Virus record (IMG/VR): IMGVR_UViG_2617270952_000002
Coordinates: 1 to 27,724 of that record
Reading direction: 5' to 3' (one strand)
Source: a virus
Lineage: Duplodnaviria; Heunggongvirae; Uroviricota; Caudoviricetes
DNA length: 27,724 bases
Positions 1 through 21,115 of the stretch are shown piece by piece (positions within the stretch are counted from its first letter, which is position 1; each line of letters begins with the position of its first letter). The translations under genes and the position numbers were made by a program. The notes beneath the pieces are model-generated. The model had not been told where the DNA came from. It searched no databases and saw only the letters and a program-made list of their open reading frames with translations.

Positions 1-549
1 CATGGCAACTGCAGTTCACTTACACCGCTTCTCAACCCGGTACGCACCAGAAAATCATTGATATGGCCATGAATGGCGTTGGATGCCGGGCAACTGCCCG
101 CATTATGGGCGTTGGCCTCAACACGATTTTACGTCACTTAAAAAACTCAGGCCGCAGTCGGTAACCTCGCGCATACAGCCGGGCAGTGACGTCATCGTCT
201 GCGCGGAAATGGACGAACAGTGGGGCTATGTCGGGGCTAAATCGCGCCAGCGCTGGCTGTTTTACGCGTATGACAGTCTCCGGAAGACGGTTGTTGCGCA
301 CGTATTCGGTGAACGCACTATGGCGACGCTGGGGCGTCTTATGAGCCTGCTGTCACCCTTTGACGTGGTGATATGGATGACGGATGGCTGGCCGCTGTAT
401 GAATCCCGCCTGAAGGGAAAGCTGCACGTAATCAGCAAGCGATATACGCAGCGAATTGAGCGGCATAACCTGAATCTGAGGCAGCACCTGGCACGGCTGG
501 GACGGAAGTCGCTGTCGTTCTCAAAATCGGTGGAGCTGCATGACAAAGG
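1..549 (+). mobile_element. IS1 fragment (3' part of insA plus insB; right terminus missing, abutting IS30 sequence)
   Basis: Frames translate to IS1 InsA C-terminus and InsB; A6C frameshift motif ttaaaaaac at 138..146; IS1-like sequence stops near 549 where reverse-complement IS30 sequence begins. Confidence 0.85.
3..164 (+). CDS. insA: IS1 InsA, C-terminal part (5' end outside window)
   Basis: Translation ...[46 protein letters not shown] matches remembered InsA C-terminus; stop at 162..164. Confidence 0.8.
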
Positions 550-565
550 GTTTTGTTCGCCTTAA
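83..565 (+). pseudogene. insB: IS1 InsB transposase with altered C-terminus (last codons read into IS30-derived sequence)
   Basis: ORF track 160 aa [21 protein letters not shown]...; matches InsB until ...SVELHDK then diverges (GFCSP*) at the IS1/IS30 junction. Confidence 0.8.
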
Positions 566-1015
566 CCATCCTGATATTTGCTCTGGAGACCATTTCATCT
601 CCAGCTTTTCCAGAACAAGCTTTCGCAATGGTAAATTTTGATCCAGTAAGCACGGTTTTGGCCTTTTCGCCATTCTGTTGGCTCGGTTATTAGCATCAAC
701 AGCTTTGTAATAGCGGCTGCCCCGATTACGCTGAACTTCACGTGAGATCGTCGAAGGACTGCGATTCAGCGCAGTAGCTATCGCACGAATGCTCATTTTG
801 GCTGACAAACCAGCTCGTATCTCCTCGCGCTCAGACAGTGTCAGGTGAGCTACAGCCCGCTTACGCTCATGGGGGTTTTATGCCGCCAGTATCCCTTAAA
901 CATAGTGAAGATCGGGTTTTGAACCCAGGATATTCGCTATTTCACTGAAGCCAGTTCCGTTCTTCCATAGTTCAAAAACAGAGGCTTTTTCCTCTGCTGT
1001 AAATGTTCGTCTCAT
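550..1015 (-). pseudogene. IS30 transposase, N-terminal ~130 codons only, frameshifted
   Basis: ATG at 1015 (minus); track ORF 521..808 covers the downstream part in another frame; C-terminal two thirds of the transposase absent. Confidence 0.75.
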
Positions 1016-1076
1016 TCAAAAAAACTCCGCAACCCCATGTTTTCACATAACTGTTGCGTTGACCAATTGAATCTAC
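550..1076 (-). mobile_element. IS30 fragment (left end and 5' part of transposase gene, inverted; 3' part missing)
   Basis: Minus-strand translation gives IS30 transposase N-terminal region ([17 protein letters not shown]... then ...LSAKMSIRAIATALNRSPSTISREVQRNRG...) with a frameshift near 880-900; terminal sequence ggtagattcaattggtcaacgcaacag (rc of 1050..1076) resembles the IS30 inverted repeat. Confidence 0.8.
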
Positions 1077-1340
1077 CGTAGCCTTTTTTAATATTTCATT
1101 CTCCATTTCAATGCGTTGTAGCTTTTTCCTCAGCTTACGTATTTCGATTTGTTCTGGTGTTATCGGAGAGGCTTTTTGTGTTTTTCCCTGACGCTCATCA
1201 CGCAGTTGTTTGACCCATCTTGTCATTGTGGAAAGGCCAACATCCATAGCTTTGGCGGCATCTGCCACCGTGTATTTCTGGTCAACAACCAGTTGAGCGG
1301 ATTCGCGTTTAAACTCTGCGCTAAAATTTCTTTTTTTCAT
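972..1340 (-). pseudogene. insN: IS911 OrfA (InsN-like) truncated by IS30 insertion; C-terminal residues are read-through into IS30 end
   Basis: [53 protein letters not shown]...; same IS911::IS30 arrangement I recall from the E. coli K-12 chromosome. Confidence 0.8.
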
Positions 1341-1412
1341 TGGAGCACCTGTGTTGTTCTGAGGTGAGCATATCACCTCTGTTCAGGTGGCCAAATTCAG
1401 TGTGCCACTTCA
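1077..1412 (-). mobile_element. IS911 left-end fragment interrupted by IS30
   Basis: rc of 1341..1412 matches remembered IS911 left inverted repeat (tgaagtggcacactgaatttggccacctgaacagaggtgatatgctcacctcag...); orfA follows. Confidence 0.8.
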
Positions 1413-1465
1413 ACGCACCAAAATTCGCAGCTGGTGAGGTATTTGGGCTTCAGGAGGCGTCCGGC

Positions 1466-1630
1466 ATGAAAGGCGTTCTTTTCCGTGCTAAAGACGCAAT
1501 CAAGGAAAAATTCGGCGCTCGCTGGCTGCCAGCGAAGGCGAAGAACAGCGATTTCCCGGGCAACTGGTGGATTATCGAGACAAAACACAACGTGGCGGAC
1601 GTTCTGGCCGTCATCCAACAATACGCATAA
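1466..1630 (+). CDS. hypothetical small protein (54 aa), first gene of a three-gene operon
   Basis: ATG at 1466 preceded by AGGAGG (7-8 nt spacing); the longer track ORF 1340..1630 starts inside the IS911 inverted repeat, so the internal start is preferred. Confidence 0.4.
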   Translation: MKGVLFRAKDAIKEKFGARWLPAKAKNSDFPGNWWIIETKHNVADVLAVIQQYA

Positions 1631-1663
1631 CAGGAGCGCCCGGTTCGCCGGGCGTCGCATAAT

Positions 1664-2104
1664 ATGGTCACACTATCTGATACAATAAAACCGAATAAAA
1701 CATATCTTGAGGCGGTACTCCGTACAGCGTTGTTAGGAAAAACAGAAGACGAATACGTTGATTTCTTCCTGTCAGGGCTACGCGGGCGATTACTAAAAAA
1801 CCCCCGCCTGTACCGCAGCTATGGTCCATACTGGCCGGAAATTAAAAAATTATTACTGGAGCGCGGTTATGGTAATTTCGGTCGTCTCGTTGACCGTGAC
1901 GTTCGCAAAATTTACCGTTATGACCGCCCGGCGCTAACACTCATAGCCGCGACGCTCTACAGCCAGGAGCGTTTTGATAATGGTCAGATATACTCAGCCT
2001 GGCATTTACTGCCAGTGCCTGAAGAAGTTGACGACCAGGACTATGAGTTTGAGTCTTACGATTTGGAAGTTGAAGCCTTAGCACAGGCTGGAGATAAAAC
2101 TTGA
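1664..2104 (+). CDS. hypothetical protein (146 aa) with acidic C-terminal tail
   Basis: Track ORF; 33-bp gap after upstream ORF; no motif recognised by eye. Confidence 0.5.
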   Translation: MVTLSDTIKPNKTYLEAVLRTALLGKTEDEYVDFFLSGLRGRLLKNPRLYRSYGPYWPEIKKLLLERGYGNFGRLVDRDVRKIYRYDRPALTLIAATLYSQERFDNGQIYSAWHLLPVPEEVDDQDYEFESYDLEVEALAQAGDKT

Positions 2105-2349
2105 AAAAGCGATACTACACAGTAAAGCATGGGACGCTACGAGCATTACAAGAGTTTGCTGACAAGCATAACGTTGAGGTGCGCAGGGAAGGGGGAAGTA
2201 AAGCTCTGCGCATGTACCGTCCTGACGGAAAATGGCGGACGGTCGTCGATTTCAAAACAAACAGCGTTCCCCAGGGCGTCCGCGACCGGGCATTCGAAGA
2301 ATGGGAGCAGATCATCATAGATAATGCTCTGCTACTAAATGCTGACTGA
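2101..2349 (+). CDS. hypothetical protein (82 aa), TTG start overlapping upstream stop (TTGA)
   Basis: Track ORF; 4-nt start/stop overlap suggests translational coupling with the 146-aa gene. Confidence 0.4.
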   Translation: MKKRYYTVKHGTLRALQEFADKHNVEVRREGGSKALRMYRPDGKWRTVVDFKTNSVPQGVRDRAFEEWEQIIIDNALLLNAD

Positions 2350-2387
2350 GTTTAATATTACAATATTATCTGGGAGATAAATGCATC

Positions 2388-3122
2388 TTATTTCCCAGAT
2401 GATAACTGATGTTTTGCATATTCACATGGTGTACAATTATAATACTGCCTAAATAGGTACACAAAGTACGATATACTACTAAAACCACAACTTTCTGATA
2501 CTTGTTTGAGGGGGCGGTTTTGCTTTAGTAATTTAATAGCAAAAGCCATCCGTGTATCAAGTAATAACTTACTGAAGGAGGTGTTTTCTAATAATAGTTT
2601 TTTCTTTATTAAACTCTCACTCATGTATAGATAATCAGTTAAATCTCTTAGTTTCCAATGTTTAGATACATCTGAAAGAAATATGCTGCGTACTTTCCCT
2701 GAGAAAGTAGGCATGCCAGACGTAAGAAAAGCTCTAAGGTTGTCAACATCACTAAAAATTGAAAGTAATGAAAAAGTTAAAGCATCCTTAAAATCAGGAT
2801 GTATATGATTCTGGTCACTTATATTATCGATCATCCTGATTAATAAATCAGGATAAGCAAAAGACTTTTTTAGCAAATGTGGGCATTTATCCAGAAGTTG
2901 CTTCCCTTGGTGATTGTGACAAGATAAATAGTTTCTTACAGCACTATCATTAAGTTCGAATTCGATATATTTATCTGAATAGGTTTGTAAGAATTCGCGT
3001 TCAGAATGTTTAAGCAACAGCACATCACCATAATTTAATATTAAGAAATCCTTAAGAAATTGAAAAATTATCGGTTTTTTTATTAGGATGAAGTAACAGA
3101 CTCCTGACATAGCTACCACCAT
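2388..3122 (-). CDS. AraC/XylS-family transcriptional regulator
   Basis: C-terminal tandem HTH region typical of AraC family (...WKLRDLTDYLYMSESLIKKKLL...LLDTRMAFAIKLLKQNRPLKQVSESCGFSSISYFVYLFRQYYNCTPCEY); gene is strongly AT-rich relative to flanks. Confidence 0.8.
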   Translation of the reverse strand: MVVAMSGVCYFILIKKPIIFQFLKDFLILNYGDVLLLKHSEREFLQTYSDKYIEFELNDSAVRNYLSCHNHQGKQLLDKCPHLLKKSFAYPDLLIRMIDNISDQNHIHPDFKDALTFSLLSIFSDVDNLRAFLTSGMPTFSGKVRSIFLSDVSKHWKLRDLTDYLYMSESLIKKKLLLENTSFSKLLLDTRMAFAIKLLKQNRPLKQVSESCGFSSISYFVYLFRQYYNCTPCEYAKHQLSSGK

Positions 3123-3345
3123 TCTAAAGAGGCTTTGAACAAGAATAGAGATACAGCAGCACTGAAATCAAGAAGTTGTGCAAAAAATAAAAATATTGAT
3201 TTGTGTCACAGTTGCTGTTTTTTTATTATTGAATTTTTATCAATTTCACTACAGATAAATAAATTGACATAGTGTGTAACCCCTGTAAATATAAAGGGCA
3301 CTTTATCTGCTAAAGCCAACCAATTTAAAAATAGAGGGTGGGAGC

Positions 3346-4035
3346 ATGGAAGTTATCTACATAGTAGAACCAATCATTTCCACAAGCACTAACAAGTTGA
3401 TAGCAGTGGAAGTGTTGAGCAGATTTTATTCCAACGAGGGGGCTATTCTTTCTACTCAGAAAGTATTGGGTATGTTTACAAGCAAGATGAAGATTAACTT
3501 GCTAAAATCTCAACTTAACACAATAATCAAATATAAGTATTTTTTTGAACGCCATAATATATTATGCTCTATCAATGTAGATTATGATACCTGTTTATAT
3601 ATATATGGCAATAAACAAATTCAAGAACTACTAATAAACAATAAATTTATAGCGATTGAAATATCAGAAAACTATCCTGATTTAAGCGATGAGGATTACA
3701 TCATATCCTTTCTACTGACTTTGACAGATAATGTTTGGCTTGATGATTTTGGAAGTGGTAACGCCACCATGAAAGCATTAATTAAAAATAAATATCATGC
3801 AATAAAACTTGATAAGTCATTTTTTCAAGAGCATATGATTAAGCCTCATTTTGATGTCATTATTAGCAATTTAAAAAAGTTATGTCCGAATATCATCGCT
3901 GAAGGCGTCGAAAACATTGATTGTCATAAGTTATCAAAAGGGATAGGACTATGGGGCGCTCAGGGATATTTTTTCCCATCAATTCCGCTGACGGAGATTG
4001 AGTCCATAGATAGTAAGTGGCTATCAGATTTATGA
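3346..4035 (+). CDS. standalone EAL-domain protein (putative c-di-GMP phosphodiesterase)
   Basis: EAL-fold signature residues visible: EVLSR, N in SINVD, EISE, DDFGSG, KLDK, EGVE, QGY; AT-rich; divergent from the AraC gene across an AT-rich 223-bp intergenic region. Confidence 0.8.
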   Translation: MEVIYIVEPIISTSTNKLIAVEVLSRFYSNEGAILSTQKVLGMFTSKMKINLLKSQLNTIIKYKYFFERHNILCSINVDYDTCLYIYGNKQIQELLINNKFIAIEISENYPDLSDEDYIISFLLTLTDNVWLDDFGSGNATMKALIKNKYHAIKLDKSFFQEHMIKPHFDVIISNLKKLCPNIIAEGVENIDCHKLSKGIGLWGAQGYFFPSIPLTEIESIDSKWLSDL

Positions 4036-4088
4036 GATGCAGAGAGTTAGGATATTGATATGAACATCTAAGCACCTCATTACTGTGC

Positions 4089-4760
4089 TTAAAAGATGTT
4101 ATCCTTACCTGTTAATTTACCTTGAGGAACTTTAGTGAGCTCCATCCGATAAAATGCTTTTATCATATTTACAAATGGCTCATATGGTGAATATTCGTTG
4201 TCTTGTTTAGTAACGGTGTCTGTCATTGTCCTGATGTAGTCTGCGCTTACCACGTTGTTGTATTCTGTTGCGAAGCAGCATAACAACGTCAGAACATGCT
4301 CTGTCGTTATTTCGCTCCAGTTGATGTTGAAAAACTCATCGCCTTTTTTATCGTGTTCGGAATCGAAGATGCTTTGGTGGAGGATGTATTTGCCGGATTC
4401 CTTGCGCGGTAACTTGATCGCTTTCTGGCGTTCCAACTCCTTGTAAATCTGCATTGCTTCAATTAGTACCGGCCTGCCGTTCATGAAGGGATCGCGCAAC
4501 CTTACACGCTGGCCAACTCGACCAGTAATAAAGCTGTTTTCCTCTTCCACCAGCACGATAAAACCCTTTTCCTCTTTTTCTCGCAATTCGCGCAGCAGCT
4601 GGAGTTCCATGTCGCGGCGGCGTTCAGGGTATCTGGTCCGCTCAGCCATTATCAGCTCGTTGTTGATCCATGCAGCAGTCATTGACGCCGGTTTGCCGAC
4701 GTTCATCGAAACAACGCATATTTTCTTATCCATAGCTCCCCCTACAAAAAGAAAAGCCAC
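4089..4760 (-). CDS. hypothetical protein (occupies the position of P1 mat, downstream of ref); alternative start at 4733
   Basis: Track ORF 223 aa; assignment by position only (from memory of P1 order cre-cra-ref-mat). Confidence 0.5.
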   Translation of the reverse strand: MAFLFVGGAMDKKICVVSMNVGKPASMTAAWINNELIMAERTRYPERRRDMELQLLRELREKEEKGFIVLVEEENSFITGRVGQRVRLRDPFMNGRPVLIEAMQIYKELERQKAIKLPRKESGKYILHQSIFDSEHDKKGDEFFNINWSEITTEHVLTLLCCFATEYNNVVSADYIRTMTDTVTKQDNEYSPYEPFVNMIKAFYRMELTKVPQGKLTGKDNIF

Positions 4761-4921
4761 CAGCGGCGGCTTAGCAATACAACTGAAGGTAGCGCCCGGT
4801 ACTCAGACTGTGCCGTCCATGGAATATTTGAAAAGGGATCCATCCGTACCGGGCATGTGATGATTCTGACTGAAGTCACTTGTCAGTTGTCAATTATTTC
4901 AGATTAAAAATAATATATTTA

Positions 4922-8276: not shown

Positions 8277-9128
8277 ATGATAAATTATGTCTACGGCGAA
8301 CAACTGTACCAGGAGTTCGTCAGCTTCAGGGATCTCTTTCTAAAAAAAGCTGTTGCACGCGCCCAACACGTTGATACAGCCAGCGACGGTCGTCCTGTAC
8401 GCCCGGTTGTCGTTCTACCGTTCAAAGAAACTGACAGCATTCAGGCTGAAATTGATAAATGGACTTTAATGGCGCGGGAACTGGAACAGTACCCAGACCT
8501 CAATATCCCAAAGACTATTTTATATCCAGTGCCTAACATCCTTCGCGGTGTGCGTAAGGTTACAACTTATCAGACAGAAGCTGTGAACAGCGTCAACATG
8601 ACCGCTGGCCGCATTATTCATCTGATTGATAAGGACATTCGCATCCAAAAAAGCGCGGGGATCAATGAGCACAGTGCGAAATACATAGAGAACCTGGAAG
8701 CAACAAAAGAGCTAATGAAGCAGTACCCGGAGGATGAAAAATTCCGTATGCGCGTACACGGCTTTAGCGAAACAATGCTGCGCGTCCACTACATTTCCAG
8801 TAGCCCTAACTACAATGATGGTAAATCAGTTAGTTACCATGTGCCACTGTGTGGCGTGTTTATCTGCGATGAAACTCTCCGTGATGGAATTATCATCAAC
8901 GGTGAATTCGAAAAAGCAAAATTTAGCCTTTATGACTCCATAGAACCGATCATCTGCGACCGCTGGCCGCAAGCAAAAATATATCGCCTGGCAGATATTG
9001 AAAATGTAAAAAAACAAATTGCCATCACTCGCGAAGAGAAAAAGGTTAAGTCAGCCGCATCAGTTACGCGCAGCCGTAAAACCAAGAAGGGGCAGCCAGT
9101 AAACGACAACCCCGAAAGCGCGCAATAA
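8277..9128 (+). CDS. c1: C1 repressor of lysogeny
   Basis: 283 aa MINYVYGEQLYQEFVSFRDLFLKKAVARAQHVD...; matches remembered P1 C1. Confidence 0.95.
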   Translation: MINYVYGEQLYQEFVSFRDLFLKKAVARAQHVDTASDGRPVRPVVVLPFKETDSIQAEIDKWTLMARELEQYPDLNIPKTILYPVPNILRGVRKVTTYQTEAVNSVNMTAGRIIHLIDKDIRIQKSAGINEHSAKYIENLEATKELMKQYPEDEKFRMRVHGFSETMLRVHYISSSPNYNDGKSVSYHVPLCGVFICDETLRDGIIINGEFEKAKFSLYDSIEPIICDRWPQAKIYRLADIENVKKQIAITREEKKVKSAASVTRSRKTKKGQPVNDNPESAQ

Positions 9129-9160
9129 ATTATGCCCGGCATCAACCGGGCATTCTTCCA

Positions 9161-10279
9161 TTATTCAGCCGCCACCGGTTTTAACAAGCCAGCATCGAGC
9201 AGTTTACGCGTCAACCACTGCTGGCCTTTACCCGTTAATTGAGGCGTCAACCGTATCTGGTAGCCATCTTCATCATCCAGCACCACTTCTTTCACCGTGA
9301 AATACCCCGCGTTGATGTACTGCTGGAACGGCACATTTTTACGTCCACCGGACGCTATCAGGATGCCGTTCTCCCGTAACCAGACAAACAGCGCGTTTTG
9401 TTTAAGTCCAACAACCTTTGCAAAATTCCCAATCAGGATCCCTTTAGCTACTGATACCCGGTCGGCAAAATCGACTTTAGGAGCGGCGGCCACCAGCTGC
9501 TGATTTAGCTGGTGGGCTTTCTGTTCCAGAAGTTGCTTTTGTTCAGCCAGTTCGGCAGCCAGGCGTAGGGCTTCAGGAAGCGTCTGGGGGATTGCGATCG
9601 GTTGCTGTTCTTTTTGTCGGAAGTAGCTGTCTTCCAGTTTTTCAAAGAATGCCCATGCCTGATCGGTTTCGAGCATTTTAGCGTGGCGGGCTGCGCCGCG
9701 TTCTGTCCAGAGGGGGAGTGAGCGAACATTGCGAGCAATTTTTACAGAGTAGTTTAAAGCTACTCTGTGCTTCAACTCGCGCAATGATTCTCCTTCAACT
9801 TTGAAAAAGTGCTTCCCTTCAACAAAGCGTACTTTGTTCTCATGATGATTTTGGCGAATACGGATTGTTTCTGTCCCATACCCTCTAGCAAGAGTCTCGG
9901 TTGTCACTACACGCACTCCCTGCCATTCCAGAACGGGAATTTCATCAGACTGATTCTGAACAACCACCAGCTCCGATTCTTGAACTGAAGGTGCATGAAT
10001 TTTTTCTGATTTAACGTTAGTTGCTTTCATTCTGTGTGCCTCCTTGCGTGCTTCGGCTGCGGCGGTTGCGTAATTCAGATGACCCTGTTCGAGCAGGTAT
10101 TCGCGGATATCAGACAACAGGATACGGTGAACCGCGTTCTTGTCCTTTCTCCGGTAAAGTTGTTTGGTGATCATGAAGTAGTTGGCAATAACGCCTGGTA
10201 TATCCCTGGTACTGATACAGGCAGTGTGCTGTTCAATTGCCTCGATCATCTCTTCACGGGTGACTAATGACGTTCTCAT
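9161..10279 (-). CDS. phage antirepressor-like protein (ORF6N-like central domain, KilA-C/ANT-like C-terminal domain)
   Basis: C-terminal ...VSVAKGILIGNFAKVVGLKQNALFVWLRENGILIASGGRKNVPFQQYINAGYFTVKE... resembles ANT C-terminal domain; central FVEGKHFFKVEGESL...LWTERGAARHAKMLETDQAWAFFEKL resembles ORF6N. Confidence 0.7.
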   Translation of the reverse strand: MRTSLVTREEMIEAIEQHTACISTRDIPGVIANYFMITKQLYRRKDKNAVHRILLSDIREYLLEQGHLNYATAAAEARKEAHRMKATNVKSEKIHAPSVQESELVVVQNQSDEIPVLEWQGVRVVTTETLARGYGTETIRIRQNHHENKVRFVEGKHFFKVEGESLRELKHRVALNYSVKIARNVRSLPLWTERGAARHAKMLETDQAWAFFEKLEDSYFRQKEQQPIAIPQTLPEALRLAAELAEQKQLLEQKAHQLNQQLVAAAPKVDFADRVSVAKGILIGNFAKVVGLKQNALFVWLRENGILIASGGRKNVPFQQYINAGYFTVKEVVLDDEDGYQIRLTPQLTGKGQQWLTRKLLDAGLLKPVAAE

Positions 10280-10497
10280 AGTCCCTCCTGAGCAGAAGCG
10301 TTAACAGGGAGGCACCAGTAACTGAGAGAATTGCGTGAATCAGTGGAAAAACGGGCAGAGAAAATACATGGGGCGTCAGGAAGCTGAGAGCGGGCCTCAT
10401 CTTCTGTCGGTGCAATAACGAAGTGATAGTGACGTTTTTGGCAGGAGTAAAAGCGCCAGATAAATTCAGGATGAGTTGGGATAGGGATAGTAGCCAT
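10276..10497 (-). CDS. hypothetical 73-aa protein immediately upstream of and overlapping the antirepressor start (Icd-like position)
   Basis: ATG at 10497 preceded by AAGGAGG; stop overlaps the antirepressor ATG (ATGA). Confidence 0.45.
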   Translation of the reverse strand: MATIPIPTHPEFIWRFYSCQKRHYHFVIAPTEDEARSQLPDAPCIFSARFSTDSRNSLSYWCLPVNASAQEGL

Positions 10498-10557
10498 ATT
10501 GGCAGCCTCCTTAGACGTTGGTATGTAACCACCGCAGAAGAGACCAATCTTGCTGGC

Positions 10558-10633
10558 GGTGGACTGTACGGAGTTGGCCTTACTGGCGTCCAAGGTAACC
10601 AGCCTACCCGAAGGTAGCCCCATACAGCCCACC
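10558..10633 (-). ncRNA. candidate structured regulatory RNA (c4-like antisense RNA position)
   Basis: 14-bp RNA duplex possible between 10620..10633 and 10558..10571 that includes two G-U wobbles (pairs only as minus-strand RNA), enclosing a CUACC-UUCG-GGUAG tetraloop hairpin at 10604..10617. Confidence 0.3.
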
Positions 10634-10661
10634 ATTGTAGAGGTGTGCGTGTACGCCGATA

Positions 10662-10686
10662 CAAAAAAAAGACGCGAGCGGCGTCT
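10662..10686 (-). terminator. rho-independent terminator downstream of pacB
   Basis: Hairpin gacgc-gagcg-gcgtc at 10671..10685 followed on the minus strand by a run of 8 T. Confidence 0.6.
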
Positions 10687-10816
10687 GTATCGCCTTAGAC
10701 TTAAGCGGGAGGCCAATCCCGGCACCCGTTTTAATGAGGTGCCTGATAAGCATAAACCGAAAATGCCTCAAGGCGCAAGAGGTCAGGCTCAATGTAACAT
10801 CGGTAGTTAAAAAACA

Positions 10817-10833
10817 CAATTTATTAGAGCAAA
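10817..10833 (-). promoter_or_regulatory. C1 operator
   Basis: caatttattagagcaaa; 15/17 to rc consensus. Confidence 0.6.
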
Positions 10834-10836
10834 TAT

Positions 10837-12321
10837 TCATTCATTAAGCCATGCCAGAGCTTCATCAACCTGCGCTTCGTCTTCGACGCTAAGCACTTCA
10901 TCCTGGGGAACATAATCCGCCAGCATAGCGAAACAATATGTATCCCAATGGTCTGGTGAGTGCAGGTTGAGTTTTTTCTTCATATCCTCCTTACTCATCA
11001 CCTTCCATTGACCTGCGGAGTTAATCCCTACAGGGATTTTCGACGCTTCCTCAATAGTTTCATTACCCTTATCCAGTCTCATACGACCAGATTTTACGGC
11101 CTCTGCGGCTTGAACGTTGGCATAAGCACGTTTATCAAAGTACAGGCTCTTATCTTCACGGCTATGCATCTTTTTACCCCAGCGTATACGCTGTACGGTA
11201 ATACCATAATACTCGTACATCAGATCCGCCGTTGCTTTACCCAGGCCATCGCCGTCTATCGCTATGGTGATATTTGGGAATCGCTCAGGATTACATTCTG
11301 CGAAAATTTTGGCGGCAAGCTGCGTTTCTGTAACGTCTGTGTATTCCAGCATTCGATAGTTGATTACACGGCGTTTATTTCGCTGGCCGGACACCATCAT
11401 GATATTGATAACGGACTTATCCCGTCCCGTACCACCAGCAACGTCCACACATGCAAGCCAGCCCCATCCTTTGGCAATCTTGACTTTCCGCCGCGTTGCA
11501 CGTTCAACCTCATCACGTCCAAGAAGGAAGCCATCCTGTGATTTAGGGAATAGGCCGCGTACCTTAATCATGTACATAGGGTTATCACGCCCGCCGTACT
11601 CCGCCAGCTTCATTTTGATAAATGCTGGCGTTACCAACGGTGATTCCTCACTGTTAAGCGTGATCGCCGTATAAACGCCATCAGGGTTACCAGGACGCTT
11701 GGCCAGTTTATGGTGTGTATCGTAGAAATAGCCGCTTGGGCGTGTAGGCTGTGACAGCAATAAGATGCGGTTATCCTGTCCGGTAAGAGCACCGGTGATG
11801 ATACCGAAAGCTCTATCACTGACACCGGAGGCTTCATCGATAATATACAGAAGATGATCTGCGTGTTCACCGGCGAGAGCTTCTTCACTTCCCAGACGAA
11901 AGCCCTTCGGTACTACAGTCCATACACCTTTACCAGTAACCTCATAGAAAGCGGTTTCTGTCAGAACAAAATAATCAGCAAGCCATGGAAAACGGCTGGT
12001 GGCAGTAGCCCAGTTTATCTTGATGTACTTGAATATACCGGTCATTACCTGCTGAATTTTGTTCGCAACGATAATGGCGCGGGCACCGGGATACATGATT
12101 ATGAACAACATGATCATGATAGAAGTCATGTCTGATTTCCCGGTACCGTGACCAGACGAAACAGATGTCTTGCTACCCTGTTCCTGCACAGACTCAATAA
12201 TCAGATCCTGCTGCCAGGTAGGTGTTTTGCCGAACAAAACATCAGCGGCAGCAATCCAGTCATAACGATATAGCGCCACCAGCTCGCGCCAACGTGGATC
12301 CGTTACGCAACTTCTGGCCAT
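10837..12321 (-). CDS. pacB: terminase large subunit (PacB-like)
   Basis: 494 aa; Walker [10 protein letters not shown], Walker [12 protein letters not shown]; same length as remembered P1 PacB. Confidence 0.8.
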
Positions 12322-12903
12322 TAATCATCATCCCCGTATAGCTTGCGGGTAACTTCTTCGTCTTCCTCCTCGTCTTCGTCCAGGTCTTGTTCCAGCCATG
12401 GGTCGTTTGATACACCTTCAGTATCAACATCTCCATAACCGCCTGTATCAACGATATCGGCGATTTCTTCCCTACGCTGCTCAATCCACAATGCGGCATC
12501 GGCGCGGCGGTTGGCGGCCCGTTCTCGCGCAACTTTGTCCAGATCTTCAAGAGAAGGGCCACCGACGGCTGTTTGCCTTTCCTCATCATCGGTATTGGTC
12601 TTAGGAGCACGCAGATCGGCTTTGATTTGCTCCAGCATCAGGGGCGGCACTTTTCCGCCATGCGCCTCGATGAATTCAGCTGCTTCCAGCACTGACCAGT
12701 TATTTTCACGCTTTCGTTCGTAAGCGCAGATAAACATCGCGCTTATCGACATCCAGATGCGGGTATTCCTTTTCAAGAATTGCTGCGAGTTCTTTCGCTG
12801 ATAGAAGAGATTTAGTGCGGATCATGTAATCCGCAATCTCGTACGATGTTATTCGTGAGTGATTTATTTCCATGAAGTGGCGTCCCTGCCAGTTAAGTAA
12901 CAT
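12321..12903 (-). CDS. putative terminase small subunit / DNA-binding protein region, split over two frames (12706..12903 and 12321..12776)
   Basis: Two overlapping ORFs related by a +1 shift; acidic C-terminal tail DEDEEEDEE abutting pacB start; C1 operator upstream. Confidence 0.4.
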
Positions 12904-14890: not shown

Positions 14891-15024
14891 CACAGGCATA
14901 AAGCACCAGCACTTTGCGGCTTAACAAACCTCTAGGCAGGTCATTCGTAGCCTAATGTCCGAACTGCTAAAGCATCCAAGTTGCTGTAGAATCACATCCA
15001 ATTACATAAGCCTGAAATAAGTGG

Positions 15025-16587
15025 ATGAAAATGACAAGTATTCAACAACGTGCAGAGCTTCATCGTCAAATCTGGCAAATTGCTAACGATGTCAGGGGTT
15101 CGGTCGATGGATGGGATTTTAAGCAATACGTTCTGGGCGCACTTTTCTACCGTTTTATCAGCGAAAATTTTTCCAGTTATATTGAAGCCGGTGATGACAG
15201 TATCTGTTATGCGAAACTGGATGACAGCGTAATTACTGATGACATTAAAGACGATGCCATCAAAACTAAAGGCTACTTCATCTACCCCAGTCAGCTTTTC
15301 TGCAACGTAGCTGCGAAAGCAAATACTAATGACAGACTGAATGCAGATTTAAACAGCATCTTCGTTGCTATCGAAAGTTCTGCTTACGGTTATCCTTCAG
15401 AAGCTGACATCAAAGGTTTGTTTGCTGATTTCGATACTACCAGTAACCGCCTGGGTAACACCGTTAAAGATAAAAATGCCCGCCTGGCTGCGGTTCTGAA
15501 AGGGGTTGAAGGGTTAAAACTTGGTGACTTCAACGAACATCAGATTGACCTGTTCGGTGACGCCTATGAGTTCCTGATTTCTAACTATGCGGCGAATGCC
15601 GGTAAGTCAGGCGGCGAGTTCTTTACACCGCAACACGTCTCTAAGCTGATTGCACAACTGGCTATGCACGGGCAGACCCACGTTAACAAAATCTACGACC
15701 CGGCAGCAGGATCCGGTTCGCTGTTGTTGCAGGCTAAAAAACAGTTTGATGACCATATCATCGAAGAAGGCTTTTTTGGTCAGGAAATCAACCATACAAC
15801 CTATAACCTGGCACGTATGAACATGTTTTTGCACAACATCAACTACGACAAGTTTGATATCAAGCTGGGTAATACACTGACTGAGCCACACTTCAGAGAT
15901 GAAAAACCGTTTGATGCCATCGTTTCTAACCCGCCGTATTCGGTGAAATGGATTGGCAGCGATGACCCGACGCTGATTAACGATGAACGTTTTGCCCCGG
16001 CTGGCGTTCTGGCCCCCAAATCCAAAGCTGACTTTGCGTTTGTATTACATGCGCTGAACTATCTTTCTGCCAAAGGTCGTGCTGCGATTGTTTGCTTCCC
16101 GGGTATTTTTTACCGTGGCGGCGCGGAGCAGAAAATCCGTCAGTATCTGATTGACAATAACTATGTCGAAACCGTAATTTCACTGGCACCGAACCTGTTC
16201 TTTGGCACCACCATTGCAGTAAACATTCTGGTTCTGTCCAAACATAAAACGGATACCAACGTTCAGTTTATTGACGCCAGCGAACTGTTCAAAAAAGAGA
16301 CTAACAACAATATCCTGACCGATGCCCATATCGAACAGATTATGCAGGTATTTGCCAGCAAGGAAGATGTTGCTCATCTGGCGAAATCTGTCGCGTTTGA
16401 GACCGTTGTTGCTAATGACTATAACCTGTCGGTGAGCAGCTATGTGGAAGCGAAAGATAACCGCGAAATTATCGATATTGCTGAGCTGAATGCTGAGCTG
16501 AAAACCACGGTCAGCAAAATCGACCAGTTGCGCAAAGATATTGATGCGATTGTGGCTGAAATTGAAGGCTGCGAGGTGCAGAAATGA
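15025..16587 (+). CDS. hsdM: type I restriction-modification system methyltransferase subunit HsdM
   Basis: 520 aa; AdoMet motif DPAAGSGS and catalytic NPPY. Confidence 0.95.
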
Positions 16588-17798
16588 GCGAGATGAGTTA
16601 TCTGGAAAAATTGCTGGATGGGGTTGAAGTTGAGTGGTTGCCATTGGGGGAAATAACCAAATATGAACAGCCAACAAAGTATTTGGTAAAAGCAAAAGAT
16701 TATCACGACACATATACCATACCGGTTCTTACTGCCGGAAAAACATTTATTCTTGGATACACAAATGAGACTCATGGTATTTATCAGGCATCAAAGGCAC
16801 CTGTAATAATTTTTGATGATTTCACCACCGCTAATAAATGGGTGGATTTTGACTTTAAGGCAAAATCATCGGCCATGAAAATGGTTACATCATGTGATGA
16901 TAATAAAACCTTACTGAAATATGTTTACTATTGGCTCAATACATTACCAAGTGAATTCGCAGAGGGAGACCATAAACGCCAATGGATTAGTAATTATTCT
17001 CAAAAAAAAATCCCAATCCCCTGCCCGGATAATCCGGAAAAATCCCTTGCCATCCAGTCTGAAATCGTTCGGATTCTGGATAAATTTACTGCACTTACCG
17101 CTGAGCTTACCGCTGAGCTTAACATGCGTAAAAAACAGTACAACTACTATCGCGACCAGTTGTTGAGTTTTAAAGAGGGTGAGGTTGAGTGGAAGACTTT
17201 GGGAGAGATCGGAAAATGGTATGGGGGAGGGACACCATCAAAAAATAAAATTGAATTTTGGGAAAATGGAAGCATTCCATGGATTTCCCCGAAAGATATG
17301 GGCCGAACACTTGTAGACTCTTCGGAAGACTATATAACTGAGGAGGCTGTTCTACAATCGTCAACAAAACTGATTCCAGCAAACTCGATTGCAATCGTTG
17401 TTCGCTCAAGCATATTGGATAAAGTATTACCAAGTGCATTAATAAAAGTACCTGCTACGCTCAATCAAGATATGAAAGCAGTCATTCCTCATGAAAACAT
17501 CTTGGTTAAATATATTTATCATATGATTGGGTCTAGGGGGAGTGATATTCTGCGAGCAGCGAAAAAGACAGGAGGGTCCGTAGCTTCTATTGACAGTAAA
17601 AAATTATTTTCATTTAAAATTCCGGTTCCTAACATCAATGAACAACAACGAATTGTCGAAATACTCGACAAATTCGACACACTGACTAACTCCATCACCG
17701 AAGGTCTTCCGCGTGAAATCGAGTTGCGCCAGAAACAATACGAGTACTATCGTGATTTACTGTTCAGTTTCCCGAAACCTGAAACTGTCAGTAATTAA
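16584..17798 (+). CDS. hsdS: type I R-M specificity subunit HsdS (type IC-like, TAEL repeat in central conserved region)
   Basis: 404 aa; two target-recognition domains separated by ...[23 protein letters not shown]...; overlaps hsdM stop. Confidence 0.9.
17094..17117 (+). repeat. 2x tandem 12-bp repeat (cttaccgctgag) encoding TAEL-TAEL in hsdS
   Basis: Direct tandem duplication read in sequence. Confidence 0.85.
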
Positions 17799-17919
17799 TT
17801 GATCATTGCTACCGATCGGACCACCTTAACACCCGGTCAGTATATAGACTATTTTTTACGCGCCGGAAGTCACCATTACCCCCCTTCCGGCCCTTGCCAG
17901 ACGGCACAAAGGATGCGCT

Positions 17920-20900
17920 ATGACTCATCAGACACACACCATTGCTGAATCCAATAACTTTATCGTTCTTGATAAGTACATCAAAGCTGAGCCAACAGGC
18001 GACAGCTACCAGAGCGAATCGGACCTGGAACGCGAACTGATACAGGACCTACGGAATCAGGGCTATGAATTTATATCCGTAAAATCACAGTCGGCGATGC
18101 TGGCCAATGTTCGGGAACAGCTTCAGAACCTCAATGGTGTGGTGTTTAATGACAGCGAGTGGCGGCGTTTCACGGAGCAGTATCTGGATAACCCGAGCGA
18201 TGGCATTCTGGATAAGACCCGTAAAATCCATATCGACTATATTTGCGACTTTATTTTTGATGACGAGCGTCTTGAGAACATCTATTTGATAGATAAAAAG
18301 AATCTCATGCGCAATAAGGTGCAGATTATCCAGCAGTTTGAACAGGCGGGTTCTCACGCTAACCGTTATGACGTAACTATCCTGGTTAATGGCTTACCGC
18401 TGGTACAAATCGAACTGAAAAAACGCGGCGTGGCGATTCGTGAGGCTTTCAACCAGATACATCGTTACAGTAAAGAGAGTTTTAACAGCGAAAATTCCCT
18501 GTTTAAGTATCTGCAGCTGTTCGTCATTTCCAACGGCACTGATACCCGTTATTTTGCCAACACGACAAAGCGCGATAAAAACAGTTTTGACTTCACCATG
18601 AACTGGGCGAAATCAGACAATACGCTGATTAAAGACCTCAAAGACTTTACCGCCACCTTTTTCCAGAAACATACTCTGCTTAATGTTCTGGTGAACTACA
18701 GCGTTTTTGACAGCAGTCAGACACTACTGGTAATGCGACCGTACCAGATTGCCGCCACCGAGCGCATTCTGTGGAAAATTAAGAGTTCCTTTACAGCGAA
18801 GAACTGGTCAAAACCGGAAAGCGGTGGGTATATCTGGCACACTACCGGTTCTGGTAAAACCCTCACCAGCTTTAAAGCCGCGCGTCTGGCAACAGAGCTG
18901 GACTTTATTGATAAAGTCTTCTTTGTGGTCGACAGGAAAGACCTCGATTACCAGACCATGAAGGAATATCAGCGTTTTTCGCCAGACAGCGTCAACGGCT
19001 CGGAAAATACCGCAGGCCTTAAACGAAATCTGGATAAGGACGATAACAAAATTATCGTCACTACTATTCAGAAACTCAATAACCTGATGAAAGCAGAAAG
19101 CGATCTGCCTGTATATAATCAGCAAGTGGTGTTTATATTTGATGAATGCCACCGCAGCCAGTTTGGAGAAGCGCAGAAAAACCTGAAGAAGAAATTCAAA
19201 CGCTATTATCAGTTTGGTTTTACCGGCACCCCTATTTTCCCGGAAAACGCCTTAGGCTCAGAAACAACCGCCAGCGTATTTGGTCGTGAATTGCATTCGT
19301 ATGTAATTACCGATGCGATTCGTGACGAAAAAGTGCTCAAATTCAAGGTGGACTACAACGATGTGCGGCCACAGTTTAAGTCTTTAGAGACAGAAACTGA
19401 CGAGAAAAAACTGAGTGCGGCTGAAAATCAGCAGGCGTTTCTTCATCCCATGCGTATTCAGGAAATCACGCAATATATTCTGAATAATTTCCGCCAGAAA
19501 ACCCACCGTACCTTCCCTGGCTCAAAAGGTTTTAATGCTATGTTGGCAGTGAGCAGCGTGGATGCCGCGAAAGCCTATTATGCGACGTTTAAACGGTTAC
19601 AAGAAGAAGCCGCTAATAAATCGGCTACCTATAAACCGCTGCGTATTGCGACAATCTTCTCCTTTGCCGCCAATGAAGAACAAAATGCCATTGGTGAAAT
19701 TTCCGATGAAACTTTTGATACCAGCGCAATGGACAGCAGTGCTAAAGAGTTTCTGGACGCTGCAATTCGTGAATATAACAGCCATTTTAAAACTAACTTT
19801 AGCACCGACAGTAACGGTTTTCAGAACTACTATCGTGATTTAGCCCAGCGGGTTAAAAATCAGGATATCGATCTGCTAATTGTCGTGGGGATGTTCTTAA
19901 CCGGCTTCGATGCTCCAACATTGAACACGCTATTCGTCGATAAAAACTTACGTTATCACGGCCTGATGCAGGCATTTTCCCGCACCAACCGCATTTATGA
20001 CGCCACTAAAACCTTCGGTAATATCGTCACTTTCCGGGATCTGGAACGCTCAACTATTGATGCCATAACGCTGTTTGGTGACAAAAACACCAAAAATGTG
20101 GTGTTAGAAAAGAGTTATACAGAGTATATGGAAGGCTTTACTGATGCTGCTACAGGTGAAGCTAAACGCGGCTTCATGACAGTAGTTTCAGAACTGGAAC
20201 AACGGTTCCCTGACCCTACCAGTATTGAAAGTGAAAAAGAGAAGAAAGACTTCGTTAAACTGTTTGGCGAATACCTGCGTGCCGAGAACATCCTGCAAAA
20301 CTATGATGAATTTGCCACGCTAAAAGCCCTGCAACAAATCGATCTTAGCGATCCTGTTGCGGTAGAAAAATTCAAAGCAGAACATTATGTGGATGATGAA
20401 AAGTTCGCTGAATTGCAAACAATTCGTCTCCCTGCTGATCGCAAGATTCAGGATTATCGTTCTGCCTATAACGATATTCGCGACTGGCAGCGCCGTGAGA
20501 AAGAAGCTGAGAAAAAAGAGAAATCAACCACTGACTGGGATGACGTAGTTTTTGAGGTCGATTTGCTGAAGTCTCAGGAAATAAACCTGGATTATATCCT
20601 TGGACTGATTTTCGAACACAACAGACAAAATAAAGGCAAGGGCGAAATGATCGAAGAGGTCAAACGCTTAATTCGTTCAAGCCTGGGAAACCGTGCTAAA
20701 GAGGGCCTGGTGGTCGATTTTATTCAGCAAACGAACCTGGATGATTTACCGGACAAAGCCAGCATCATTGACGCATTCTTTACGTTTGCTCAACGCGAAC
20801 AGCAACGTGAAGCAGAAGCATTGATAAAAGAAGAAAATCTCAATGAAGATGCAGCAAAACGCTATATTCGCACGTCTTTAAAACGCGAATATGCCACCGA

Positions 20901-21036
20901 AAATGGCACAGAATTAAACGAAACATTACCAAAACTTAGTCCGTTAAATCCGCAATATAAAACGAAAAAACAGGCAGTTTTCCAGAAAATCGTCTCGTTT
21001 ATTGAGAAGTTTAAAGGCGTAGGCGGAAAAATATAG
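17920..21036 (+). CDS. hsdR: type I R-M endonuclease/translocase subunit HsdR
   Basis: 1038 aa; PD-(D/E)xK-like IELKK, Walker A TGSGKT, DEAH-like FDECH. Confidence 0.95.
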
Positions 21037-21115
21037 CCCAATTCGTGTTTTTCTTGCGGGTTCTTAATTAAACCCGCAAGAGACCGTGGGGTTCCAAATG
21101 GCTAATATACTCCCC

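Follow-up and report, generated by a model that had tools for sequence, protein, structure and literature searches.

The truncated darB-ulx-lxc block of a probable P1-derived plasmid prophage

Three open reading frames lie in tandem on the plus strand near the left end of the window, that is, the whole 27,724-nt stretch of DNA that was analyzed. They occupy positions 1466-1630 (ATG start, 54 aa), 1664-2104 (ATG start, 146 aa), and 2101-2349 (TTG start, 82 aa). A 33-bp spacer (1631-1663) separates the first two, and the TTGA at 2101-2104 forms an overlap of the ulx stop with the lxc start. The ORF lengths, strand, 33-bp gap, and TTGA overlap reported in an initial annotation of this DNA were all reproduced. 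The flanks it described were also found, with a mosaic of IS1, IS30, and IS3-family pieces to the left and AT-rich cargo to the right, where GC content falls from approximately 49% to 31-33% across ~2400-4000. The same annotation counted three genes; the 54-aa ORF is the last part of a longer darB frame and represents a pseudogene fragment. The features of the locus and its flanks are listed below.

83-565: IS1 insB fragment, part of the left-flank IS mosaic
521-808, minus strand: N-terminal fragment of an IS30 transposase, part of the left-flank IS mosaic
972-1412, minus strand: terminal part of an IS3-family element (NCBIfam NF033516; PGAP 'transposase, incomplete' in a sibling plasmid), with orfA at 972-1376, which we take to be IS911-like
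1415-1630, plus strand: 3' remnant of darB, codons 2185-2255 of 2255 and the stop (tblastn, PHROG, and PGAP)
1636-1655, plus strand: GC-rich hairpin
1664-2104, plus strand: ulx, encoding the 146-aa Ulx (P1 identity, PHROG 1629, and P1 annotation)
1707-1733, plus strand: promoter P3lxc, -35 TTGAGG kept, -10 CATTGT changed to CGTTGT (one change)
1850-1878, plus strand: promoter P2lxc, TTATTA ... TAATTT, identical to P1 including the spacer
2028-2056, plus strand: promoter P1lxc, TTGACG ... GAGTCT, identical to P1 including the spacer
2101-2349, plus strand: lxc (= bof), encoding an 82-aa C1 corepressor (P1 identity, PHROG 2160, and P1 annotation)
2346-4223: the res/mod slot proper, AT-rich non-P1 cargo (GC 31-33%, break in P1 homology)
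2388-3122, minus strand: AraC-family regulator, most like YdeO/GadX (NCBIfam)
3346-4035, plus strand: EAL-only protein, putative c-di-GMP phosphodiesterase (NCBIfam)

Window 1413-2345 aligned without gaps to positions 9754-10686 of phage P1 at 96.6% DNA identity, an interval annotated as darB/ulx/lxc in P1. The order in the P1 reference is PdarB - darB (2255 aa) - ulx (146 aa) - lxc (82 aa) - mod - res - mat - ref - c8 - cre, with the lxc promoters P3, P2, and P1 annotated within ulx and an IS5 interrupting the mod region of the reference record. At the protein level, window 1415-1627 (+) encodes DarB residues 2185-2255 (71 aa, 98.6% identity by tblastn), 1664-2101 (+) encodes Ulx (97.3% identity to P1 over 146 aa), and 2101-2346 (+) encodes Lxc (98.8% identity by tblastn). 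Profile searches agreed: PHROG 1629, 'Ulx-like anti-restriction', matched the 146-aa ORF (E 4.5e-66), PHROG 2160 matched the 82-aa ORF (E 7.8e-57), and the 54-aa ORF aligned at the extreme C-terminus of DNA-methyltransferase/DarB profiles. The 97-100% identity to P1 proteins, together with pN/pS values against P1 of 0.07 for the darB tail, 0.13 for ulx, and 0 for lxc, indicates that the three ORFs are not chance frames.

Identification rested on PHROGs and direct DNA and protein comparison with P1. Neither Pfam nor NCBIfam returned a match for any of the three ORFs. No PADLOC defense model matched any of the three, no Rfam RNA family was found within 1413-2349, and a sequence search of the PDB gave only insignificant matches for Ulx and Lxc. 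Single-sequence AlphaFold2 models were poor (mean pLDDT of 42.9 for Ulx and 61.5 for Lxc). A megablast search with 1400-2360 matched 704 plasmid records, mostly from E. coli and many of them IncY or non-mobilizable, as well as 18 phage records, all P1-like. Query coverage of at least 80% in one place was reached in 648 of these plasmid records and in every phage record, the latter including P1, P7, RCS47, SJ46, and phi456, in which darB, ulx, and lxc (bof, 'modulator protein') are annotated. Co-occurrence of the three genes, which the initial annotation had proposed as a check, is therefore widespread across plasmid and phage records, and the genes are co-directional behind PdarB in P1. The locus is already known and explained as a darB'-ulx-lxc backbone block. 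Its members, put forward as an uncharacterized operon, are the 3' remnant of P1 darB, ulx, and lxc/bof, all with annotation and published functions (PMC8546580, PMC9024508, PMC12810830, PMC10695390), and this confident homology to known genes refutes the claim of novelty on the very criterion set in the initial annotation.

P1 homology starts at 1413, the IS3-family element having its outer end at 1412. Within the darB frame, the 54-aa ORF begins at an internal Met (1466), and the open frame extends upstream into the IS end (ORF 1340-1630). PGAP annotated the stub in a sibling plasmid as 'darB domain protein, incomplete, missing N-terminus'. In P1, darB encodes a 2255-aa methyltransferase/helicase anti-restriction protein; its last 71 codons and stop are retained here, followed by an identical 33-bp spacer, whereas codons 1-2184 and the promoter are absent, leaving a pseudogene remnant and no functional member. 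No further DarB-coding DNA was detected elsewhere in the 27.7-kb window, and no other DarB sequence was detected in the complete 96-kb sibling plasmid NZ_CP061751.1, which shares the junction and lacks most phage structural genes. Because this complete sibling plasmid carries no DarB sequence elsewhere, darB appears to have been deleted rather than moved; the absence was seen in one sibling plasmid only, and DNA beyond the window could still include another darB copy or the hdf-darA operon.

The identical IS/darB junction was present in at least 19 plasmids, with 99.6-99.7% identity in the block. We infer that IS activity caused the loss of darB: an IS3-family element and an associated deletion would have removed 97% of the gene (codons 1-2184) along with PdarB. 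The IS1/IS30/IS3-family mosaic itself (window 1-1412) also occurs on E. coli chromosomes, beside a tyrosine recombinase gene, and on plasmids, so that it had probably been assembled before it was acquired as a unit.

Downstream of ulx, lxc has been maintained without protein change. Codon by codon comparison with P1 over 82 codons revealed 10 synonymous differences and no amino acid changes, the tblastn value of 98.8% being due solely to the TTG initiator read as Leu. In P1, Lxc is a corepressor of the C1 repressor; it makes C1 bind more tightly and blocks its antirepressor, Coi, and lxc is expressed constitutively from promoters that are not under C1 control (PMC8546580). The promoter positions listed above are those annotated in the P1 record, mapped via the ungapped alignment, our own consensus scan having missed them. 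A c1 gene is present in the same element, its product identical to P1 C1 at 281 of 283 residues (99%), and the window holds 10 C1-operator-like sites against 0.18 expected by chance. The P1 arrangement is thus retained in the full-length 82-aa match, the TTG overlapping the ulx stop, the place 3' of ulx, the gene's own promoters within ulx (P1lxc and P2lxc), and the presence of C1 and its operators. It differs in the synonymous changes, in the altered -10 of P3lxc, and in the DNA 3' of the stop, which shows no relation to P1, AT-rich cargo having taken the place of mod and its promoters P2mod/P1mod. Since P1lxc, P2lxc, and the protein are unchanged from P1, and since C1 and many operators are present, lxc is probably still working, keeping the remaining C1-controlled genes silent; its corepressor biochemistry would follow from the unchanged protein sequence. 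Just 3' of the lxc stop, in the non-P1 cargo, lies a terminator-like hairpin (2364-2404, 17-bp stem), a plausible bidirectional terminator for lxc and the AraC-family gene, which converge on it.

The remainder of the window contains the following features.

4089-4844, minus strand: mat, frameshifted relative to P1
8277-9128, plus strand: c1 repressor gene
9128-10838: immI-like module
9161-10279, minus strand: Ant-type antirepressor, 372 aa, in the immI-like module
10552-10639, minus strand: C4 antisense RNA, 75.9 bits, in the immI-like module
10665-10742, minus strand: isrK RNA, in the immI-like module
12721-12736 (approximate): deletion junction, lpa to pacA
15025-16587: hsdM, in region 14925-21111
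16584-17798: hsdS, in region 14925-21111
17920-21036: hsdR, in region 14925-21111

Lpa is the late-promoter activator, and LPpac is a late promoter. At the deletion junction, P1 ~90175-91308 is missing: lpa has lost its 3' part and pacA its 5' two-thirds, LPpac and the pac site are gone, and the 5' part of lpa is joined directly to the last third of pacA. Neither late-gene activation nor DNA packaging should consequently be possible for the element. What remains of pacA/pacB has only 83% identity to P1. The immI-like module separates c1 from pacB, an interval that is empty in P1, and also contains a 149-aa regulator-like ORF. The P1 record notes flank similarity to the EcoDXXI/R124 hsd loci, making region 14925-21111 a known exchange point. 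Measured against the 251-aa P1 Mat, mat has a frameshift within a T-run at ~4750-4760, after approximately codon 32, and its last ~44 codons are also unlike those of P1, since homology to P1 does not begin until 4224. The frameshift could be a homopolymer sequencing error or a real pseudogene, and it would be harmless if the Met at P1 Mat residue 38 (MDKKICVV) is the real start.

The remaining member of the block, ulx, is full length, with four conservative substitutions relative to P1 (A2V, F83I, H101Q, and E144D). Four reports describe Ulx as a P1 head protein, packaged in the virion, that aids localization and incorporation of DarB; DarB as protecting injected P1 DNA from EcoK/EcoB type I restriction; and Ulx, DarB, and DdrB as required for protection against EcoB/EcoK type I restriction (PMC9024508, PMC10695390, PMC12810830, PMC12707154). 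For a working Dar system of this kind, an intact Ulx was found (146 aa, 97.3%, PHROG 1629). Of DarB only residues 2185-2255 are encoded, the PdarB region has been replaced by IS sequence, and virion production for co-injection would fail with the lpa-pacA deletion. The P1 locus of hdf, darA, ddrA, and ddrB falls outside the 27.7-kb window. Relative to P1, length, identity, and synteny between darB and lxc are kept, whereas the partner DarB is deleted, PdarB is lost, and the element is defective in late transcription and packaging. With DarB and PdarB gone, no annotated promoter upstream, and lpa, pac, and pacA deleted, Ulx has neither client nor virion, and ulx is for this reason probably an intact, recently orphaned, non-functional relic. 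The consensus scan found no promoter 5' of ulx, and this is weak evidence either way, as the scan also missed the P1-annotated lxc promoters; P3lxc sits 3' of the codon at which ulx begins. Transcription running in from the IS mosaic could nevertheless reach the darB stub and ulx, the expression state being deduced here from sequence.

Taken as a whole, we consider it highly probable that window 1413-2349 represents the 3' end of the darB-ulx-lxc block of phage P1, carried in a P1-derived (IncY-type) plasmid prophage, in which darB has been truncated by an IS3-family end and deletion, ulx is an orphaned relic, and lxc is working. The lack of decay in ulx fits recent loss of function and fits continued use equally well. 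A ulx that still functions, serving a DarB supplied from beyond the window or by a co-resident P1-like phage, or acting in a DarB-independent role, would account for the intact gene, its pN/pS of 0.13 against P1, and its retention in at least 19 plasmids with the same darB truncation, and the window shows just part of the replicon. However, the sibling plasmid that shares this junction carries no DarB sequence beyond the stub, ulx has lost PdarB and starts 5' of P3lxc, and the lpa-pacA deletion disables late-gene activation and packaging, which would leave a head-packaged protein without a destination. The junction-sharing plasmids are also near-identical in the block (99.6-99.7%), so that retention of ulx among them is little evidence of selection. 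Continued function of ulx is accordingly regarded as improbable.

Less probable again is that the 54-aa ORF encodes a genuine small protein (RefSeq WP_000679356.1), for example a DarB C-terminal peptide kept as a Ulx-binding or capsid-targeting module. An AGGAGG sits 9 nt 5' of its ATG at 1466, and PGAP called it as a CDS in several plasmids; the AGGAGG and ATG are, however, plain DarB codons (LQEASGM), and P1 reads AGGAAG at this place. The frame is open upstream into the IS end, as expected of a cut gene, another PGAP run called it a darB pseudogene, and no promoter was found for it by the consensus scan. The reading as a darB remnant is therefore preferred.

The GC-rich hairpin (fold of -18.4 kcal/mol, z -1.8) lies within the darB-ulx spacer, between an AGGAG (1632-1636) and the ulx ATG, which otherwise lacks a Shine-Dalgarno sequence at normal spacing. 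The hairpin may form part of a split ribosome-binding site or influence the stability or processing of the RNA. The 33-bp spacer with its hairpin is identical in P1, a comparison of two sequences that carries no covariation evidence. Retention of ulx for a second role independent of DarB and of the virion, in one version with Ulx acting together with the 71-residue DarB C-terminal peptide and the hairpin serving as a split ribosome-binding site that couples both, is regarded as very improbable. The orphaned relic remains the preferred reading of ulx.

Whether the block occupies or borders variable DNA is settled by the extent of P1 homology, which ends at 2345 (the end of lxc) and restarts at 4224 within mat; in P1, mod and res are placed between lxc and mat. 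The initial annotation had put the three ORFs in the res/mod slot. They instead fall within the P1-homologous 1413-2345, so that they are neither between lxc and mat nor non-homologous to P1, and the slot is the adjacent 2346-4223. Because homology breaks there, at the P1 mod/res interval, the three ORFs are conserved backbone that flanks the variable slot without occupying it. The AraC-family/EAL pair in the slot is interrupted by IS5 in sibling plasmids. P1-like plasmids that have lost res-mod and taken up other DNA at this low-GC hot spot have been described (PMC6906374). The present element resembles those P1-like IncY phage-plasmids in the replacement of res-mod by other cargo and in IS-mediated backbone rearrangement, and differs in its AraC/YdeO-like and EAL cargo and in its particular IS/darB junction. 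PLSDB matches to the window were mosaic, and no record there was colinear with the whole of it.

Of the functions first guessed for the ORFs, anti-restriction held, since ulx belongs to the P1 Dar system, and toxin-antitoxin or abortive infection did not, as PADLOC gave no match and nothing points that way. A novel, self-contained three-gene toxin-antitoxin, abortive-infection, or defense cassette carried as res/mod cargo, which the small size and tight linkage of the ORFs beside a variable region and the lack of Pfam/NCBIfam matches might have suggested, has almost no probability given that all three ORFs have 97-100% identity to P1 backbone genes of known role, that one is a fragment of a 2255-aa protein, that the variable slot begins only past the lxc stop, and that P1 can do without lxc, ulx, or darB singly, no toxicity having been reported for them (PMC10695390); it was ruled out by the P1 homology and the lack of a PADLOC match.

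Beyond correct annotation, the significance of the locus is small. RefSeq 'hypothetical protein' labels in many P1-like plasmids should be replaced by Ulx, Lxc (C1 corepressor), and darB pseudogene. The locus provides an example of decay in a P1-derived plasmid, where a virion-borne anti-restriction gene appears to have been lost to IS activity and the neighboring res/mod slot has been refilled with regulatory cargo. In contrast, the immunity corepressor gene lxc, with its own promoters, is under strict purifying selection.
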